Below are positions 1-6,134 of a DNA stretch of 64,000 bases, in pieces (the stretch's first letter is position 1; each line of letters opens with the position of its first letter). The notes beneath the pieces are model-generated. The model was given only the letters and a program-made list of their open reading frames with translations. It was not told where the DNA came from and did not search any database. Made by a program: the position numbers and the translations under genes. This DNA is from an uncultured Bdellovibrio sp. (lineage in GTDB: Bacteria > Bdellovibrionota > Bdellovibrionia > Bdellovibrionales > Bdellovibrionaceae): assembly GCA_963932905.1 (NCBI GenBank), contig CAWVRN010000001.1:1-64000 (forward strand), read 5' to 3'.

Positions 1-305
1 GGGAAACCAAGTGAACGGAAATCTTTTATCTTAAGGGCTTGCTTTCTTACAGAAGAAATTCCGTGGTTCATAGGATCGATTAAAATTCGAAACTTTCCTG
101 CAATTGCGCATGTCTCGTCTCCGATCCTCCCAAGTTCGTAGTTGCTATTGATTGTATAGGAGGTCATTTTTACCATAACTGGTTTCGGATCATTGTCGCT
201 AAGTTTGGCGTAGGCTGTGCAATATACGACAGACTCGAACAAAGGCGTCGCCGCGTGAAGAAAATTAGATGATATTAAAATTATCCCTAGTGTGATTAAT
301 CTCAT
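1..305 (-). CDS. Secreted hypothetical protein (runs off the window edge)
   Basis: Hand translation MRLITLGIILISSNFLHAATPLFESVVYC..., open to base 1; AAAGGA RBS upstream; signal-peptide-like N-terminus; not in the ORF track. Confidence 0.6.
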   Translation of the reverse strand, partial: MRLITLGIILISSNFLHAATPLFESVVYCTAYAKLSDNDPKPVMVKMTSYTINSNYELGRIGDETCAIAGKFRILIDPMNHGISSVRKQALKIKDFRSLGF

Positions 306-557
306 TGGTTCGTTCCTTTTTTTTACAGTTTTAGTTGAGCTCTATTTTTTTGCTCCACAAATATATAAAATAGAAAAAGGATCTGGGGAATTGTCGAAAT
401 ACCTATCTTAAGTATCGAGAAATACTATGACTGTAACTGCTCAATTAGTTTCGACTTTTAAAGAATGGCTGATTTGAATTTTTTTCAACTGCATGATCTC
501 ACCAAGAGTTTCGTGCACACCAAGAAATGGCAAAAAAATATCGTAGAATTCCGGGCA

Positions 558-583
558 TAAAAAAACCAGCTCGCGGCTGGTTG
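558..583 (-). terminator. Intrinsic terminator, probably downstream of tRNA-Val before the insertion
   Basis: Minus strand aaccagc-cgcga-gctggtt followed by a T-run; a second hairpin ctcacc-aaa-ggtgag at 596-610. Confidence 0.55.
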
Positions 584-614
584 ATTTAATCTTGCCTCAC
601 CTTTGGTGAGAGAT

Positions 615-644
615 TGGTAGGCCCGAGGTTAGTGTAATCGAACC
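615..644. repeat. Left attachment site (core TGGTAGG plus element arm ending TCGAACC)
   Basis: tggtagg-cccgaggttagtgtaa-tcgaacc resembles the tRNA end tggtagg-gagtacaggat-tcgaacc with a 5-bp longer spacer. Confidence 0.8.
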
Positions 645-846
645 AACCGAGTTAAGCATAGGACGCGCTTATAAGGTTCAGTGGAAGAAAGTAAAACCGA
701 ATTTAGAGGAATTAGCACGACTATATTGGGTTGATGGACTGACGCAGCGGCAGATATCTGAGTTAATCGGTGTTCGTCGAGCAACTGTGGCGGAATCTGC
801 GAAGAAATTTAACCCTGATCAGTTTAAGGCTGACAAGTTAGGCTGA
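622..846 (+). CDS. Start-less helix-turn-helix coding segment; predicted C-terminus of the recombinase in the excised circle
   Basis: PEVSVIEPTELSIGRAYKVQWKKVKPNLEELARLYWVDGLTQRQISELIGVRRATVAESAKKFNPDQFKADKLG*; in-frame TGA at 607-609 and no ATG; in frame with the recombinase across the core. Confidence 0.75.
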   Translation, partial: PEVSVIEPTELSIGRAYKVQWKKVKPNLEELARLYWVDGLTQRQISELIGVRRATVAESAKKFNPDQFKADKLG

Positions 847-865
847 ACATTTGTGTTCAGCCTTT
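840..865 (+). terminator. Hairpin at the stop codon of the HTH segment
   Basis: Perfect 10-bp stem aggctgaaca/tgttcagcct, short T tail. Confidence 0.55.
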
Positions 866-946
866 AGCATTATAACTAGTGTTTTAATTACGGGGCAAGA
901 ACCAAAAGATTTAAGTGTGATCCGTAGGCCACCCTGTTTTCAGAAT

Positions 947-1210
947 TTATTTAACGAAACAACCTAACATGCCCGAGTTCCAAAGACTCACGACCGTACC
1001 TGGCCTACAATATGTAGTTATTGCCACAGTCCAGCGTCCACTGTATTCAGCTTTTTTTCCGTCATACATAAACACGACTGGATCTCCAAATCCACCTGTT
1101 CCCGAAATCTGTACATATCGCCCGCTTTTCATAATTTCTTCTGGACTTAAGTTTGCGGAGAAAGCTAAACCTGATAAAAACAAACTAAATATCAAAACTT
1201 TTAAACGCAT
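947..1210 (-). CDS. Small secreted hypothetical protein (element cargo)
   Basis: 87 aa, signal peptide ending AFS-A, AGGAG RBS, two Cys. Confidence 0.7.
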   Translation of the reverse strand: MRLKVLIFSLFLSGLAFSANLSPEEIMKSGRYVQISGTGGFGDPVVFMYDGKKAEYSGRWTVAITTYCRPGTVVSLWNSGMLGCFVK

Positions 1211-1474
1211 AAAATCTCCTATTAAATTTTAGCCGTATTGCTTTTTGGTTTACACCTGTTTAAAACAATGACACAGCCTTGGGTTAAAAACCTATCCACG
1301 CGACCTTAGGTAAGAGAAGCGTGTTATTGTTTTAAAATTTCAAATTGAAGGCCAAAGAATTATTTTTTCGAACAAACCCAAATGAAATAATAACTACCTT
1401 TGTCTATTCAGACTGAGTAATTTGGTCAAACACCGTGATATTCGATTTAAAATCTAAACCGTACAGCTTTAACC

Positions 1475-1939
1475 TTATTTCGATGTTCTTACATGCCTAT
1501 TCCCACCACTTAAAACCTGGACCTGCGGCACATTTTTAAATCTTTGGGTCTTATTGGTATAAATAAAATCATCGGTCACAACCCAAAGCCTAAGTCCAAG
1601 AAATTTCAATATCTGTAACAGATACTTAAAATTAGGATTCCCGTCCTGCCAAAGCATCCGGTACAGGGTCGTTCGTGGTATTCCAGTTTTTTGTGAAGCC
1701 TTTGACATGCCGATTTTAGATAAAATCAAATAAAGACCTCTACGAAAATCCTCAAGTTTTTCTGAACGATCAAATTCAAAACAGGTTTTTAAAAACTCGC
1801 TGTACAAATCTTTTTCTGCAAGGTCTGTTTGCATTTCTTCTTTAGTGTAACTGCGGGATGCGCGTTCCTTTTTAATCAAGACTGCATACATTTCTCGAGC
1901 TTTATAGATATTGTCGTATCTGATCTTGTTTTTAGGCAT
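1475..1939 (-). CDS. HTH protein, HI1420-like addiction-module antidote family
   Basis: GMSKASQKTGIPRTTLYRMLWQDGNPNFKYLLQILKFLGLRL fits the family pattern. Confidence 0.7.
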   Translation of the reverse strand: MPKNKIRYDNIYKAREMYAVLIKKERASRSYTKEEMQTDLAEKDLYSEFLKTCFEFDRSEKLEDFRRGLYLILSKIGMSKASQKTGIPRTTLYRMLWQDGNPNFKYLLQILKFLGLRLWVVTDDFIYTNKTQRFKNVPQVQVLSGGNRHVRTSK

Positions 1940-1956
1940 GTTACATTAATGTAACA
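1939..1956. promoter_or_regulatory. Perfect 18-bp palindrome, putative operator at the HTH gene start
   Basis: tgttacattaatgtaaca; overlaps a TGnTACATT extended -10-like element and the ATG. Confidence 0.6.
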
Positions 1957-2210
1957 CAATTGGACTAAAGGCAAAAAATATTTTTTGAATTTAATTTTTC
2001 ATTTTATTTTCAAAGAGTTAGATATCAAAATAATTTCTTTATTATGCAAACTCGTTTGGTGTCATATTGCCGTTTGCTGATAAATTAGTTTTTATCTCAC
2101 TAAAAAATCGTGTGGGTAACGCATTTACTATATAGTAAGAGAGAAAATTCTCTGACTTAGACTCAAATTTAAAAATTGGCCAAGCCAATAACAATAGCCT
2201 CAAAAAAACT

Positions 2211-2228
2211 TGTTCGGAAATCCGAACA
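2211..2228. promoter_or_regulatory. Palindrome upstream of the rep-like gene
   Basis: tgttcgga-aa-tccgaaca. Confidence 0.4.
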
Positions 2229-2425
2229 CATTAAAAATTTTAAAATAAATCTTATAGAGAGAATAAATTTTTATTTATTGAATTACACTTGGTTATTGTC
2301 ATAGATTAGCATTTCAAGGATCAACATAAGATCTATCAAGAGTCTCAAAGCGCCAAAGAGCGCACATCAATAGCCACAAACAAAATATATTTGCTCGTTT
2401 ATTATCGAGCTTTTTTCCTAAAGGG

Positions 2426-3373
2426 GTGGAATTTATGCGTCTTAATAGATCGCAAAGTGCAACATTTGTTAAAAGAAAATACAAACGTAAAACAACCAGA
2501 AAATTATCAGCTAGTGACATTCAAGTTTTAGATTTTCTATGGACCTGGAAAGTAGCAAGTACACAAATTCTAAAGATTGTAGCATTTAAAGGTAAAAGTG
2601 ATTGGTGGGTGTATAAAGCGATTCGCCAATTAATTTCAGAAAAATACATTATGCCACTTCCTCGTGGCAAATATCTAAACCAAGAAGTCTTAACTTTAAC
2701 AGAGCTTGGATTTGAAGTGGTGCTGATGGATCGTGACGACATTCAACAATACAGATTTAAACCTCATGCTCCAGCACATGATTACTTTGCAACTTGTCTT
2801 CAGCTGGGTGATCTTTGGCTATCAGACTGTCAGAAAGTGTTTTTCACTGAACAAATGTTGGCAAGTTTGAGATCGAATAATTTTCCCAGCAACTATGCAA
2901 GTGGCGAAGGACATTTACCTGATGGTATTACTCGTTTACAAAATGGTTTAAAGTCTGTGGCCGTTGGCTACGAAGTTGATCTCAATTTAAAAGAAGAAGA
3001 TCGCTATATTGAAACGATTCGGTATTACGAGAACATAGAAGATATTTCAATTGTCATTTGGCTAGTTCGCAATGACTGGATCGCTGAAAGAATATCTAAA
3101 GTTATAGCTGCTGATGGCAGTCGGTATAAACCAAAACAGTTTTCATTTATCAGGCTTGATGATTTTAAAAATCAAGTATGGGATGCAAAAGTTTTTCGTG
3201 GCGCAAATGTGGGCTTAAGTGTCCGCAAAATCCATACAAACCTTATGCAAAGCCTGGGCAAAACGGATGCAAACATAGTGCAAAATAATTTAAAAGATAT
3301 TTTCTTTTCAGATTATAAAAGTCCACAAAAATCAAGCTCTTACGGAAAAACTGAAAACACAAAAATTGATTAA
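2426..3373 (+). CDS. Replication-relaxation (Replic_Relax)-like protein: winged helix plus PD-(D/E)xK-type domain
   Basis: N-terminal wHTH (..LTLTELG..), PAHD, HLPDG...GYEVDLNLK motifs; ATG start at 2435 possible. Confidence 0.55.
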   Translation: MEFMRLNRSQSATFVKRKYKRKTTRKLSASDIQVLDFLWTWKVASTQILKIVAFKGKSDWWVYKAIRQLISEKYIMPLPRGKYLNQEVLTLTELGFEVVLMDRDDIQQYRFKPHAPAHDYFATCLQLGDLWLSDCQKVFFTEQMLASLRSNNFPSNYASGEGHLPDGITRLQNGLKSVAVGYEVDLNLKEEDRYIETIRYYENIEDISIVIWLVRNDWIAERISKVIAADGSRYKPKQFSFIRLDDFKNQVWDAKVFRGANVGLSVRKIHTNLMQSLGKTDANIVQNNLKDIFFSDYKSPQKSSSYGKTENTKID

Positions 3374-3480
3374 CACCCTATGGGTTAAGGGTAGATATAT
3401 ATTCTTATCCATAGGGTCACACAATCAAGAGCCTCAGACAGAAAAAATGAATAAATAAATCTAAATGAAAGGAAATAACT

Positions 3481-4050
3481 ATGAGTCATAACAATGACAA
3501 TAGTGGAATGCTTTATATTGGTGGAATAGCGGTGATTATAATTATCATTGGTTTTTTAATTAAAATTTTAAAATCAATCATGATTGAATTATCGCAATTA
3601 TTTACAGCTATCGGAAAAATGGCTGAGGCTTTTATTTCAATGGCGTGGCAAATAGCGCAAATTATGGGGTTATTAGCTTTAGGTGTTGCTGCAATTTACG
3701 CAGCTTGGATATTTTCAAAGAAATACTACAAGCTGGTTAAAGATGCGACTGAGGTCAAAGCACAAATTGAAAATAGATTTTCAAATCTGCAATCAGAGTT
3801 TGAGGATGCGTTTAATTTGTTAAAACGAAATGCAATTCGAGAAATCAGCCAAATGCGCAAAGAATTGGATGATGCTTTAAAACGATCCGAAGTTGTTCCA
3901 GAAATTCCCAGCATATCAACTGAATCACCAACTACTTCGGATTCCAATCAATTAGCTGCATCAATAGCTAACCAATCAAACGATGAGCAAACTCATCAAC
4001 TAACGACTCAACTACAAGATGCACCAAAAGATATTTCAAACCCTTTTTAA
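3481..4050 (+). CDS. Membrane protein with two hydrophobic segments and a coiled coil
   Basis: 189 aa, GAAAGGA RBS. Confidence 0.7.
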   Translation: MSHNNDNSGMLYIGGIAVIIIIIGFLIKILKSIMIELSQLFTAIGKMAEAFISMAWQIAQIMGLLALGVAAIYAAWIFSKKYYKLVKDATEVKAQIENRFSNLQSEFEDAFNLLKRNAIREISQMRKELDDALKRSEVVPEIPSISTESPTTSDSNQLAASIANQSNDEQTHQLTTQLQDAPKDISNPF

Positions 4051-4069
4051 ATAAAGGGTGCGGGGTTAA

Positions 4070-4294
4070 ATGGCTAAACGATCTGGGCGTAAAAGGTGGG
4101 AACCAAGTTCTATTCGAATTAAACAGGAAAAGGTCAGTGATGAACGCTTTGAGCAATTACTTGCTGAAGTGGGCGAAGTTTTATATAAAAGACTTCGTGA
4201 CAAGGTCAGAGTTCAAGATGAACAGACGACTAAGTCTTCTTCCACTGAACCTTTTTTAAGACTCGGCAATGGTGAAAAACCAAAAACCGCTTAG
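4070..4294 (+). CDS. Small protein directly upstream of the recombinase (candidate directionality factor)
   Basis: 74 aa, basic N-terminus, stops 13 bp before the recombinase ATG; function is inference. Confidence 0.5.
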   Translation: MAKRSGRKRWEPSSIRIKQEKVSDERFEQLLAEVGEVLYKRLRDKVRVQDEQTTKSSSTEPFLRLGNGEKPKTA

Positions 4295-4307
4295 GAAAGG
4301 ACATTTC

Positions 4308-6128
4308 ATGAAAAAAATAAATATAAAAAATCAATCTGGTTACAAGATCGGGATCTATGTTCGTGTTTCAACTGAAGAACAAGCTGAGAACCCCGAAGGT
4401 TCAATTAAATCACAAGAACATCGTTTAAGGGAATTTGTTAAACACAAAAACTCATTTGAGCCCTTTGGTGAAATCGTTGAATTTTACTGTGATGCAGGTA
4501 TCTCAGCAAAAGATACCAATAGACCAGCGTTTCAAAGAATGATGGATGATGCAAGATCCAAGAAAATCAATATGATTTTAATTACTGAATTATCACGGCT
4601 TACAAGATCTATTCGTGATTTTGCGAACCTTGTTGAAATGCTGGATCAGTTAGAATGTCAAATATACTCACTAAAAGATCAATTTGATTCCTCAACAGCG
4701 GTTGGATCTTTTTCAATGTTTTTAATGGCAAATTTAGCTCAATTTGAACGAAAGCAAATTGGTGAAAGGATTTCAGCGAACTTCTTATCAAGAGCTAAGC
4801 GTGGACTTTATAACGGTGGCAGTGTGCCGTTAGGATATAAAGTCAGCGGCAATCGCGATGGAAGGCTTGAGGTTATCCCAACTGAAGCTGAAACAGTTCG
4901 GGATATATTTAAAACTTTTTTAACTGAAGGCACTTTGTCGTCTGCAACAAAAGCCCTAAATAAAAAGAAAATCCACCTTGTTCGTAGAAAAGAAGGCGGC
5001 GGTCAGCCAAGAACTGGTGTTGTGATGCTGGAATCACTTTATAAAATGCTCACAAACCCAGTTTATATTGGTATTAGGACTTATCAAGAAAACGGCAAAG
5101 AGTATTCAGTCAAAGCTCAGTGGGAACCAATTATCAACGAGGAAATATTTAGACGTGTTGGTGAAATTTTAAAGAAAAACAAATCGAGGAAAAAATCTTC
5201 ACCAAAAAGATGGCCTTATTTATTGTCTGGGTCTTTGTACTGTCAATGTGGACATCGTATGTCTGGTAAGTCCGCTCATGGCAACGGTGGAAAGATCGCT
5301 TACTACGATCATGCGTGGACAGCCAAAATTGAAAACGCAACAGCTGAAAAATCAAAACGCTGTGATCCACAACGGGTATTAGCTGAAAAGCTTGAGCCCA
5401 TTGTGTGGAAAGCCGTTAAAGATTTTTTATTGGTTCCAGAGTTTTTCACGGAAATTTTGCTCGAAGCTCAAAATCAAAGCGAGTTACAAACGCCAAAGCA
5501 AGATATTGAGCGAAAGCAAAATAAGATCTATGAAATCAACATGCAGCTTGATGCCTTGTCAGAGCGCCTAGGTTTACTGCCAAAGTCAGTCAACCCAAAG
5601 CATGTCTTTGTTCAAATGGAGCGCTTGTCAGTGCAAAAAGATGGCTTAGAAAAAGATGTCGCGGAATTAAAACGAAATAACGAACGGGAAAATGTTGCGG
5701 TTGGTATGGCTGATTTTAATCAGTTTAAGGCTGTGGTTGTGGATTTATTGGAAAATGAAAATGATCCTGTGGTAAAGACTGCGATCATTCAAAAGATGGT
5801 TCACAAAATTATTGTGAAAAGTGATGAAGTTGAGATTTTCTTTTACGTTGGTGAAAAGTACTATAAACGAGAGCTTGCAATTGCAGGCTCTCGCATTTTA
5901 TCAATAGCGCTTGGTGGTGATGGAATTAACAAGGATGTAGTGCCAGAAAAAAGGCACACGTCGGCACTCCCTGTTTTTCACGGGAACCCGAAGACATCCG
6001 AAATTTTAAATTTAAAACCGAACTTTTTTTATGACGCTGGTTCGAACAGCTTGAAAAATGGTAGGGAGTACAGGATTCGAACCTGCGACATCCACCTTGT
6101 AAGGGTGGCGCTCTACCAACTGAGCTAA
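4308..6128 (+). CDS. Large serine recombinase (integrase), integrated-state form of 606 aa
   Basis: YVRVST catalytic motif, DAGISAKDTNRPAFQRMM, SRLTRS, recombinase domain, zinc ribbon CQCG..YYDH..C, coiled coil; AGGAAAGG RBS favours the 4308 start; 3' end runs antisense through the tRNA. Confidence 0.95.
   Translation: MKKINIKNQSGYKIGIYVRVSTEEQAENPEGSIKSQEHRLREFVKHKNSFEPFGEIVEFYCDAGISAKDTNRPAFQRMMDDARSKKINMILITELSRLTRSIRDFANLVEMLDQLECQIYSLKDQFDSSTAVGSFSMFLMANLAQFERKQIGERISANFLSRAKRGLYNGGSVPLGYKVSGNRDGRLEVIPTEAETVRDIFKTFLTEGTLSSATKALNKKKIHLVRRKEGGGQPRTGVVMLESLYKMLTNPVYIGIRTYQENGKEYSVKAQWEPIINEEIFRRVGEILKKNKSRKKSSPKRWPYLLSGSLYCQCGHRMSGKSAHGNGGKIAYYDHAWTAKIENATAEKSKRCDPQRVLAEKLEPIVWKAVKDFLLVPEFFTEILLEAQNQSELQTPKQDIERKQNKIYEINMQLDALSERLGLLPKSVNPKHVFVQMERLSVQKDGLEKDVAELKRNNERENVAVGMADFNQFKAVVVDLLENENDPVVKTAIIQKMVHKIIVKSDEVEIFFYVGEKYYKRELAIAGSRILSIALGGDGINKDVVPEKRHTSALPVFHGNPKTSEILNLKPNFFYDAGSNSLKNGREYRIRTCDIHLVRVALYQLS
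6039..6083. repeat. Right attachment site (element arm GGTTCGAA, core, tRNA arm)
   Basis: ggttcgaa (6039-6046) is inverted to ttcgaacc (6076-6083) around TGGTAGG. Confidence 0.8.
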
Positions 6129-6134
6129 CTCCCT
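6059..6134 (-). tRNA. tRNA-Val (anticodon TAC)
   Basis: 76-nt cloverleaf: acceptor stem AGGGAGT/ACTCCCT, anticodon arm CCACC-CTTACAA-GGTGG, GGTTCGAATCC T arm, encoded CCA. Confidence 0.98.

Follow-up and report, generated by a model that had tools for sequence, protein, structure and literature searches.

A serine recombinase gene that probably spans the attachment site of its own mobile element in a Bdellovibrio tRNA-Val gene, with a helix-turn-helix tail detached on integration

The first 64,000 nucleotides of the forward strand of contig CAWVRN010000001.1 from an uncultured Bdellovibrio sp. (GenBank assembly GCA_963932905.1), referred to here as the window, contain a 5.4-kb mobile element within the 3' end of a tRNA-Val gene, at positions 622-6065 (5444 bp). 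The gene of the large serine recombinase (LSR) of this element quite probably spans the attachment site attP, so that integration would exchange a C-terminal helix-turn-helix (HTH) tail for junk codons, and this exchange is taken to be a functional switch. An earlier reading of the window, the original prediction, had put forward such a rewriting of the C-terminus by integration, together with the view that the HTH is joined to the recombinase only in the excised circle. The rewriting has been borne out by the empty site of a congener, G008, which maps the junction exactly in the 7-mer TGGTAGG, and the restriction to the circle has proved to be too strong in view of the chromosomal tandem fusions (L033, P0163 and P0179) and the relics (L002, L030 and L044).

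In its integrated form the LSR gene, whose ATG at 4308 is preceded by AGGAAAGGA, has no stop ahead of the att core and reads ...GSNSLKNGR over it, then EYRIRTCDIHLVRVALYQLS (20 residues) up to the stop at 6126-6128, residues 1-586 being element-borne and the final 20 antisense to tRNA-Val. At the far end of the element, GGT AGG at 616-621 stands in the same phase relative to the 7-mer as in the LSR gene and is followed by 74 open codons (622-843) and by TGA at 844-846; an in-frame TGA lies at 607-609, two codons upstream of this tail, and the first ATG, GTG or TTG in its frame is a GTG at codon 58. On joining of the two ends, the P arm of attP encodes ...DAGSNSLKN, the core GR and the P' arm PEVSVIEPT, and the joined frame of 586 and 74 codons specifies 660 residues, 74 of which are replaced by 20 on integration. 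The phase of the 7-mer, the 74 open codons, the TGA, the hairpin at the tail stop and the antisense tRNA-Val end had all been described correctly in the original prediction, and the sizes that it gave (5444 bp, 660 against 606 residues) are confirmed from the coordinates. The region 830-890 around the hairpin folds at -18.3 kcal/mol (z -3.5; as stable in 0 of 200 shuffles), and the hairpin 840-863 is likely the terminator of the LSR transcript in its circle form. The start-less frame at the far end encodes an HTH that joins the recombinase frame only where a junction of the attP type is intact, and to this extent the earlier view is supported.

The empty site in G008 (locus L019) consists of the terminator flank, ATTGGTAGG and tRNA-Val immediately after it, and the attB junction reads ...GGTGAGAGATTGGTAGG|GAGTACAGGATTCGAACC..., with tRNA-Val abutting directly. 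Because this site pins the junction, the ends of the element can be set at 622-6065 and the crossover placed inside TGGTAGG, where A619-G620 would be the crossover dinucleotide. The flank of about 60 bp, 95% identical to the G008 copy adjoining tRNA-Val, carries the terminator 557-582 (stem 564-582 plus a T-run) on the tRNA strand, and the window segment 553-614, which comprises this terminator and a small hairpin, is conserved in 5 of 9 other same-genus genomes searched; the insertion moved this native flank 5.4 kb away from tRNA-Val. The 7-mer occurs in the 64-kb window in 5 copies against 3.0 +/- 1.8 expected, with at least 5 in 18 of 100 shuffles, which is not beyond chance, so the junctions rest on the empty site, the native terminator and the inverted arms. 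The latter consist of GGTTCGA at 6039-6045 and its inverse TCGAACC at 638-644, with A|G of the core as their centre of symmetry; the P arm is identical in the related element L043, and its proximal part, including GGTTCGA, is common to L040 and L033. The T-arm copy of TCGAACC in tRNA-Val (6077-6083) lies 5 bp nearer the core than the attP arm copy. A published serine-integrase model describes, in its part on the attachment sites, a DNA motif of the zinc-ribbon domain (ZD) shifted by 5 bp between attP and attB (PMC3783163), and the short core, the pseudo-palindromic attP and the 5-bp ZD shift fit 3 of the 4 half-sites, no clear ZD motif being seen in the B arm, i.e., the flank half-site.

The LSR matches the Pfam families Resolvase PF00239 (E 7.3e-34, residues 16-166), Recombinase PF07508 (E 1.3e-15, residues 191-291) and Zn_ribbon_recom PF13408 (E 4e-7, 30.7 bits against a cut-off of 25.3, residues 305-371), with a PDB match to the TP901-1 integrase catalytic domain (E 1.9e-23) and with R19, S21 and T22 of the RVST motif nearly invariant across 22 sequences. 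Residues of about 385-470 are coiled-coil-like, as judged by eye; the canonical LSR domains finish by about residue 520, and 520-586 form a linker, the last codons of which are the P arm. The three Pfam domains are all encoded ahead of the core and are kept whole in the integrated form. The LSR probably catalyses the attP x attB insertion of its element; indirect signs of this are the empty site in G008 and the near-identical LSRs (92-94%) that occupy tRNA-Val here and tRNA-Met in L040 and L043.

Protein searches with the 76 tail residues gave 5 longer proteins and 178 representatives at E<=0.001, and in the close homologs the conservation begins exactly at GR, i.e., at the core, the preceding leaders being unrelated or recombinase C-termini. 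The 13 homologous tails retrieved as DNA have open frames of 69-82 codons and no common start position, and in 5 of the 13 no start codon precedes codon 58. Over 78 pairs, synonymous (pS) and nonsynonymous (pN) differences were on average 0.05 and 0.18 in codons 1-11, which are the P' arm, 0.32 and 0.13 in codons 12-25, and 0.73 and 0.24 in codons 26-66, and the ratio of nonsynonymous to synonymous rates (dN/dS) in codons 12-66 had a median of 0.175 (57 pairs finite). This pattern indicates constraint at the DNA level in codons 1-11 and at the protein level in codons 26-66. In the AlphaFold2 model, residues 1-29 are unstructured and helices are formed by residues 30-38, 44-51 and 55-64 (pLDDT of the block 88-91), so that the tail folds, as predicted, as a three-helix HTH. 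The top rows of the Foldseek search were the DNA-binding domains of DeoR, SorC and LsrR (35 aligned residues, root-mean-square deviation of about 1.1 A, 34% identity), with the gamma-delta resolvase HTH ranked lower; the earlier guess of a SorC-like HTH agrees with these nearest solved structures, though none reached E<=0.001. Prediction of a complex of LSR and tail scored 0.51 (runs 0.52, 0.51 and 0.49) against 0.01 for the best control, with at least 58% of the contacts agreeing between the runs and a partner pLDDT of at least 67. Of 157 solved complexes, 116 attained the mark for such scores, as did 2 of 215 mismatched pairs, and at scores of 0.60 or lower it was attained by only 18 of the 157 together with both mismatches; the prediction weakly suggests docking of the tail on the LSR body. 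By comparison with the related sequences, the two alternative C-termini can be regarded as established, as can the anatomy of the att sites, the ends of the element and a selected, start-less and folded tail.

The same layout and core phase are shared by three further complete elements, namely the metagenome loci L040 and L043, both in tRNA-Met and with LSRs 94% and 92% identical to that of the window, and L033 (LSR 87% identical), and thus tRNA-inserted homologs with a start-less HTH at the far end, for which the original prediction had proposed to look, do exist. Their common order is tail, then orf315-orf189-orf74-LSR, with orf154 between tail and orf315 in L040 and L043. The integrated enzyme ends in 4 antisense tRNA-Met residues in L040 and L043 versus 20 residues in tRNA-Val. 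Conservation of the reading frame across att, on which the earlier proposal depended, was found in 4/4 complete elements of the lineage and in one distant paralog. Among 30 database homologs of the C-terminal part of the LSR, 25 extend as far as the core, and every one of these crosses it with no stop, to end in antisense tRNA-Val (3), in two tRNA-Met types (10), elsewhere (6), at the core (3) or in the second tail type described below (3); the remaining 5 end before the core. A profile of the tail only matched in 35 of 401 sampled genomes of the phylum, belonging to 30 of 203 genera, and a mixed profile of LSR C-terminus and tail, which is not a tail count, in 81 of 182 genomes.

In the assembly of the window (G000), 34 tRNA genes were found, 8 of which are entered by an antisense serine-recombinase open reading frame (ORF). 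Of the 10 LSR paralogs, 8, the window's included, have frames that terminate within an antisense tRNA gene or pass right through it (Val, His, Arg-tct, Arg-tcg, Gln, two of Met, and Asp); the other seven of these are located on contigs C45, C5, C12, C22, C1:523.6-525.5k, C43 and C11 (L008-L013, L015), and one further is truncated by a contig end. The far ends of the other 7 paralogous elements were searched by 7-mer and open phase, with little upstream contig for Arg-tct, Met-b and His. Candidates for His, Gln and 2 of 3 for Asp were ordinary-looking genes without arms and were dropped, and among the 7 elements only the tRNA-Asp far end was convincing. The P and P' arms of the tRNA-Asp element form a perfect 14-bp inverted repeat, GGAAACTTTTCGTC / GACGAAAAGTTTCC, and its in-phase tail of 163 codons contains an HTH and half a Recombinase domain (PF07508, E 2.5e-6, 28.1 bits); the circle-form enzyme would in this case gain a second recombinase-type DNA-binding module. 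The longer tail type (163-164 codons) is also present at the tRNA-Val flank of the congeners G009, G006 and G003, the last with an LSR 32% identical to the window's that reads into the same tRNA-Val. For the type-2 elements of G009 and G006, which extend past the stretches L026-L029, tblastn with the whole LSR gave none in these stretches at E<1e-3.

Recombinase C-terminus, core and tail are contiguous in L002, L030, L033/P0004, L044/P0001 and P0005, and by their arrangement these contiguous fragments are relics of tandem-element junctions. The expectation of recombinases with the HTH still attached has thus held for LSR fragments with core and tail, and not for a full-length enzyme with this tail type. 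The relic junction L002 (G000:C1:570855-571276) stands within the final 0.5 kb of the contig that carries the window. A recombinase C-terminus of 140 codons is followed there by an attP-like site, which is intact, and by 37 tail codons, the tail DNA being 88% identical to window 612-728 and the homology ending at a TGA where the window has TGG. The array in L033 (9047-17230) runs from an LSR fragment through core, tail, element B, LSR_B and core to a longer, different tail, which is then masked by N; two tails each were found in L039, L040 and L043. In P0163 (758 residues) and P0179 the LSR is fused in the chromosome to the tail of a neighbour, and the chromosomal fusions in L033 and P0163 join LSRs to non-cognate tail types. 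The recognised relic tails of L002, L034, L036 and L049 are broken. Because array neighbours also complete the frame, the joining of the HTH only in the excised circle needs correction as a general statement; the window element, however, is alone, with one core at each end and no further TGGTAGG between them, so that its frame can be completed in the circle alone.

At such tRNA sites (L033, L039, L040, L043 and L048), arrays in tandem and junctions in decay were common. In L048 (4490-4623) the TCGAACC motif is the point at which a tail joins the 3' end of a further tRNA-like sequence, and G006:C5:11823-27965 (L021, L025, L027 and L028) contains two tRNA-Val terminator flanks 16 kb apart, both followed by TTGGTAG and a different element, one of the tails being short and decayed (GRGCAKVVE...).

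Integrase genes spanning attP have already been described for two systems with tyrosine recombinases, Mx8 and SSV. The comparison with SSV1 in the original prediction fits in that attP lies in the integrase ORF, and the closest cases, Mx8 IntP/IntX and Dehalococcoides DsiB, had been missed. According to the account of Mx8 in PMC6070905, attP is located inside the integrase coding sequence, integration into a tRNA gene gives it a new 3' end, and this change is read there as switching the integrase reversibly in its activity and its specificity. The window LSR is similar in having the att core in the integrase frame and the C-terminus replaced on integration (here 74 residues by 20), and in the small gene directly upstream of int, which is uoi in Mx8 and orf74 here, with a guessed role. 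It differs in being an LSR with a short core and no arm-type sites, whereas Mx8 Int is a tyrosine recombinase, and in that integration here detaches a folded HTH domain of its own, carried by a long linker. Because it is a serine recombinase, the window integrase is Mx8-like in layout and not a member of that system. For dsiB, McMurdie et al. (2011) report in the passage concerned that the gene always overlaps attL/ssrA without a stop, and suggest that its full function may depend on circularisation of the element or on an island next to it, with no 3' fragment identified in that passage (PMC3146451). Compared by description, both are serine recombinase ORFs that have no stop before att and enter the target RNA gene; DsiB differs in its tmRNA target and as a CcrB-like recombinase with the partner DsiA, for which no conserved 3' domain was identified, whereas for the window LSR the missing piece, left unidentified in that hint, is identified here, with purifying selection and an HTH fold. 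The archaeal 'suicidal' integrases of the SSV1 type are described, in the parts concerned, as having attP within the ORF and the gene partitioned by integration (PMC7253208, PMC4383910); there a tyrosine recombinase has its essential parts split and the gene inactivated, whereas here all canonical domains stay together. The Islander paper of 2014 states that no targeting of tRNA genes was known for serine recombinases (PMC4383910). Serine integrases can nevertheless specialise on tRNA gene ends, contrary to that reference work, in which this was left to tyrosine recombinases only, and a literal text search of the open-access literature for attP-spanning or tRNA-targeting serine integrases found nothing but the passage on DsiB.

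The phage serine integrases A118/LI, phiC31, Bxb1, TP901-1 and SPbeta resemble the window LSR in the order Resolvase-Recombinase-Zn ribbon and in a pseudo-palindromic attP of about 50 bp, whose distal motif is 5 bp more distant from the core than that of attB. Canonical phage serine integrases target protein-coding genes or intergenic sites, and we know of none with a detachable C-terminal HTH, nor, among the five named, of any attP inside the integrase ORF. In the integration-dependent immunity of mycobacteriophages, attP is inside a coding sequence and integration truncates the protein, the truncated gene being there a repressor and not a recombinase. The detachable folded DNA-binding domain, the second, larger tail type and the complementarity between leader and tail are new; the interpretation is right in its anatomy and has precedents, and a regulatory role may be drawn from it.

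In the proposed course of events, an intact attP, be it in the circle or at a tandem-array junction, would give rise to the 660-residue LSR, composed of the canonical domains, an unstructured linker of about 95 residues and the three-helix HTH. Recombination of attP with attB would move the last 74 codons 5.4 kb away to the far element end, without a start codon, the chromosomal gene then ending in 20 (tRNA-Val) or 4 (tRNA-Met) arbitrary antisense-tRNA residues, and excision would rejoin the HTH tail to the recombinase. As the tail is translated and subject to purifying selection, production of the fused form must take place, and we infer that the integration-state switch is functional, with a long form that comes from the circle and differs from the short one. 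By analogy with Mx8, the full-length enzyme may be the integration-proficient or regulated form and the tail-less one a form of altered or lower activity which stabilises integration, an explanation that we hold somewhat short of an even chance. The main alternative, that the tethered HTH is an operator-binding autoregulator, acting only while the element is free, appears rather doubtful.

A further state difference might lie in the messenger RNA. The sib element of phage lambda, located in cis 3' of attP, is on the int transcript only if attP is intact and makes the expression of int dependent on the state. The 17-nt element at 673-689 in the tail, complementary to the LSR leader, has the same topology. 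Its partner, 4237-4253, is situated 55 nt ahead of the LSR start, within the 3' end of orf74; the pairing is 17/17 in L040 and L033 and 14/17 in L043, and a 12-nt core of the 17-mer has 3 copies in the 4.55-Mb genome against about 0.5 expected, all at these places. The RNA duplex of the 17-mer was calculated at -32.9 kcal/mol versus -16.4 +/- 3.8 for 500 shuffles, and the codons GTT CAG TGG AAG AAA are near-invariant at synonymous sites in the 13 tails. In a transcript with an intact attP, the two 17-nt arms bracket the LSR ORF, and in the integrated state they lie at opposite sides of the element. The pair is possibly an RNA-level or operator-level switch, and it could consist of protein-binding (operator) sites rather than pair as RNA; a lambda-sib-like difference at the mRNA level, which would be added to either of the above roles of the tail without excluding them, is likewise held to be rather unlikely. 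As a separate observation, a 15-nt perfect direct repeat, ATCAGTTTAAGGCTG (QFKA in both), is found at 818-832 in the 3' end of the tail and at 5719-5733 in the LSR, with about 0.015 such repeats expected in this stretch.

The detached tail could also be a gene in its own right, the 74 codons coding for a small HTH regulator or excisionase that abuts attL, with the phase coincidental. A free-standing 97-residue ORF with a similar HTH does occur in L003 beside a tyrosine integrase, public gene calls over such tails (P0006-P0010 and others) use starts in the flank, and ATT at 613-615 is a possible start in principle. However, neither is an ATG, GTG or TTG present before codon 58 in the window nor a start conserved in the 13 tails; the conservation starts exactly at the att core, with unrelated leaders upstream, and 6 of the 13 tails are preceded by an in-frame stop at a distance of 0-3 codons (W, L040a, L040b, L043b, L031a and L032). 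Besides, the phase of the tail to the core equals that of the LSR in every case, including the different tail type at a different tRNA, and no LSR of the clade has a stop before the core, all of which makes an independent gene very unlikely. An accidental read-through of attP, in which the tail frame is open owing to its overlap with att and arm DNA, has no protein function and leaves the work to the canonical domains, is consistent with the DNA-level constraint on codons 1-25 (pS 0.05 and 0.32) and with the arbitrary, target-dependent endings of the integrated form, and a 'trivial' explanation of such kind was weighed by the DsiB authors in their discussion of the gene (PMC3146451). Against this, codons 26-66 lie outside any att arm, have saturated synonymous change (pS 0.73) with a pN of 0.24 and fold as a confident HTH, the 13 tails have stayed open for 69-82 codons while the recognised relics are broken (L002, L034, L036 and L049), and the second, longer tail type (163-164 codons, with HTH and Recombinase-domain match) has the same arrangement, so that the accidental reading is very unlikely. 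Tandem junctions are common enough (L033, P0163, P0179, L039, L040 and L043, with the relics L002, L030 and L044) for the full-length enzyme to be mainly chromosomal, the tail of an array neighbour completing the LSR with a role in array dynamics (accretion, composite excision), and completion by an adjacent island was also raised for DsiB in the same source (PMC3146451). This array role is unlikely as the main one, as the window element is solitary, with no third core inside, and only the circle joins its frame, while the chromosomal fusions involve non-cognate tail types (L033 and P0163); it is compatible with a circle form.

The reading preferred here, in which integration separates the HTH tail from the recombinase, has a number of observations to reckon with. 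The 660-residue protein is deduced and not observed, because the recombinase part is a fragment in every contiguous case, and a full-length LSR contiguous with the first tail type was found in 0 of the 30 database homologs. The integrated form retains every canonical LSR domain, and hence the tail may not matter for catalysis. The tails are only 75-80% identical between the window and L040 or L043, against 92-94% for the LSR body, and are combined with several LSR lineages, which makes them exchangeable modules rather than strictly co-evolving parts. A part of what is conserved in the tail (codons 1-25) reflects constraint on DNA or RNA and not on protein, and the agreement of the 17-mers counts as one observation, because the four complete elements share ancestry. 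In the Foldseek search with the tail HTH no row was at E<=0.001 and all were at E >= 0.2, which is because the domain is short, and 8 of 8 Pfam HTH matches were under their cut-offs, the best being Xre-like-HTH (E 1.5e-3, 19.2 bits against 25.8). A search of sequencing runs matched 18 DNA runs and no RNA run, and the Logan contigs of 4 of the runs, which are fragmentary at 3-5x depth, contained neither a circle junction nor an empty-site joint.

For the tRNA-targeting serine integrases of the phylum as a whole, recombination might tentatively be regarded as a reversible domain-swap switch, in which the integrase of the free element would bear an additional DNA-binding module (an HTH, or an HTH with a second recombinase-type domain), a 3' element of the circle mRNA would pair with its leader and integration would leave a tail-less enzyme and an unpaired mRNA; this generalisation is on the doubtful side. 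If true, such a switch would be the serine counterpart of Mx8 IntP/IntX and lambda sib combined, and would provide directionality or copy control without, or besides, a separate directionality factor. Serine integrases are valued in genome engineering, their direction being set by very few parts. An enzyme whose own reaction adds or removes a defined DNA-binding domain, and perhaps an mRNA element, would have a built-in sensor of the free versus the integrated state.

Table 1. Positions of the features of the tRNA-Val element in the window and of the paralogous tRNA-Asp element
Feature	Position	Strand	Remarks
Native 3' flank of tRNA-Val, B arm of attB	557..614	-	intrinsic terminator and hairpin 596-610
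attL core copy TGGTAGG	615..621	+	centre of P/P' arm symmetry
Tail ORF, start-less: GR, 74 codons and TGA	616..846	+	recombinase C-terminus if attP intact
P' arm of attP	622..650	+	distal motif TCGAACC 638-644; doubles as tail codons 3-11
17-nt element AAGGTTCAGTGGAAGAA in tail, codons KVQWKK	673..689	+	perfect complement of 4237-4253
Predicted three-helix HTH domain, tail residues 30-64	703..807	+	AlphaFold2
10-bp hairpin (840-849/854-863) around tail stop codon	840..863	+	
orf87, small, cargo	947..1210	-	signal-peptide-like N-terminus
orf154, HTH protein	1475..1939	-	Pfam dnstrm_HI1420 'addiction module antidote', E 1.4e-8
orf315	2426..3373	+	kept in all four complete elements
orf189, membrane/coiled-coil protein	3481..4050	+	lineage-conserved
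orf74, small basic protein	4070..4294	+	immediately upstream of LSR
LSR, integrated form, 606 residues	4308..6128	+	Pfam and PDB matches
P arm of attP	6033..6058	+	GGTTCGA at 6039-6045; within last LSR codons (DAGSNSLKN)
attR core copy TGGTAGG	6059..6065	+	tRNA-Val 3' end (CCTACCA)
tRNA-Val(tac), intact	6059..6134	-	forms B' arm with TCGAACC 6077-6083
tRNA-Asp element, 27,966 bp	G000:C11:36138-64110 (L051, L052)		core TGGCGGG

Apart from the recombinase, the element contains several small genes (Table 1), of which orf315, orf74 and orf87 gave nothing in Pfam or PHROGs. The identity of orf315 is 70-96% in L033, L043 and L040, and among its atlas neighbours PF13814 is present in 12-17% of members, a lead by which it is possibly of the replication-relaxation family; orf74 may be a candidate directionality factor or regulator. 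A match of orf154 to a PHROG transcriptional repressor (E 4e-11) was obtained, and this gene is present in L040 and L043 and was not found in L033. Left of the tRNA terminator, window 1-552 had no match in 40 related genomes, the contig starting at base 1, and may be another variable island or a rearranged region; in an end-overlap search, C1 and C58 were joined to no other contigs. In viral contigs, the exact 30-nt pattern of the LSR 3' end had 0 matches, and the tail profile had 0 confirmed among 77 candidate stretches.

Among the tail relatives tried, L005 and L004 were chance matches and were rejected, being phosphoenolpyruvate (PEP) carboxykinase and a sigma factor, respectively. The free-standing ORF of L003 (1339-1632, G000:C30; LNELARLRW...) has an HTH with 34% identity to that of the tail (E 3.6e-4), and because this ORF is free-standing, the HTH module is also a separate gene in another kind of element. 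The tail HTH also resembles a tandem-repeated module of long multi-HTH proteins of unknown function, such as P0011 (2827 residues, 11 stretches), P0012 (781 residues, 7), P0013 (313 residues, 5) and P0039.

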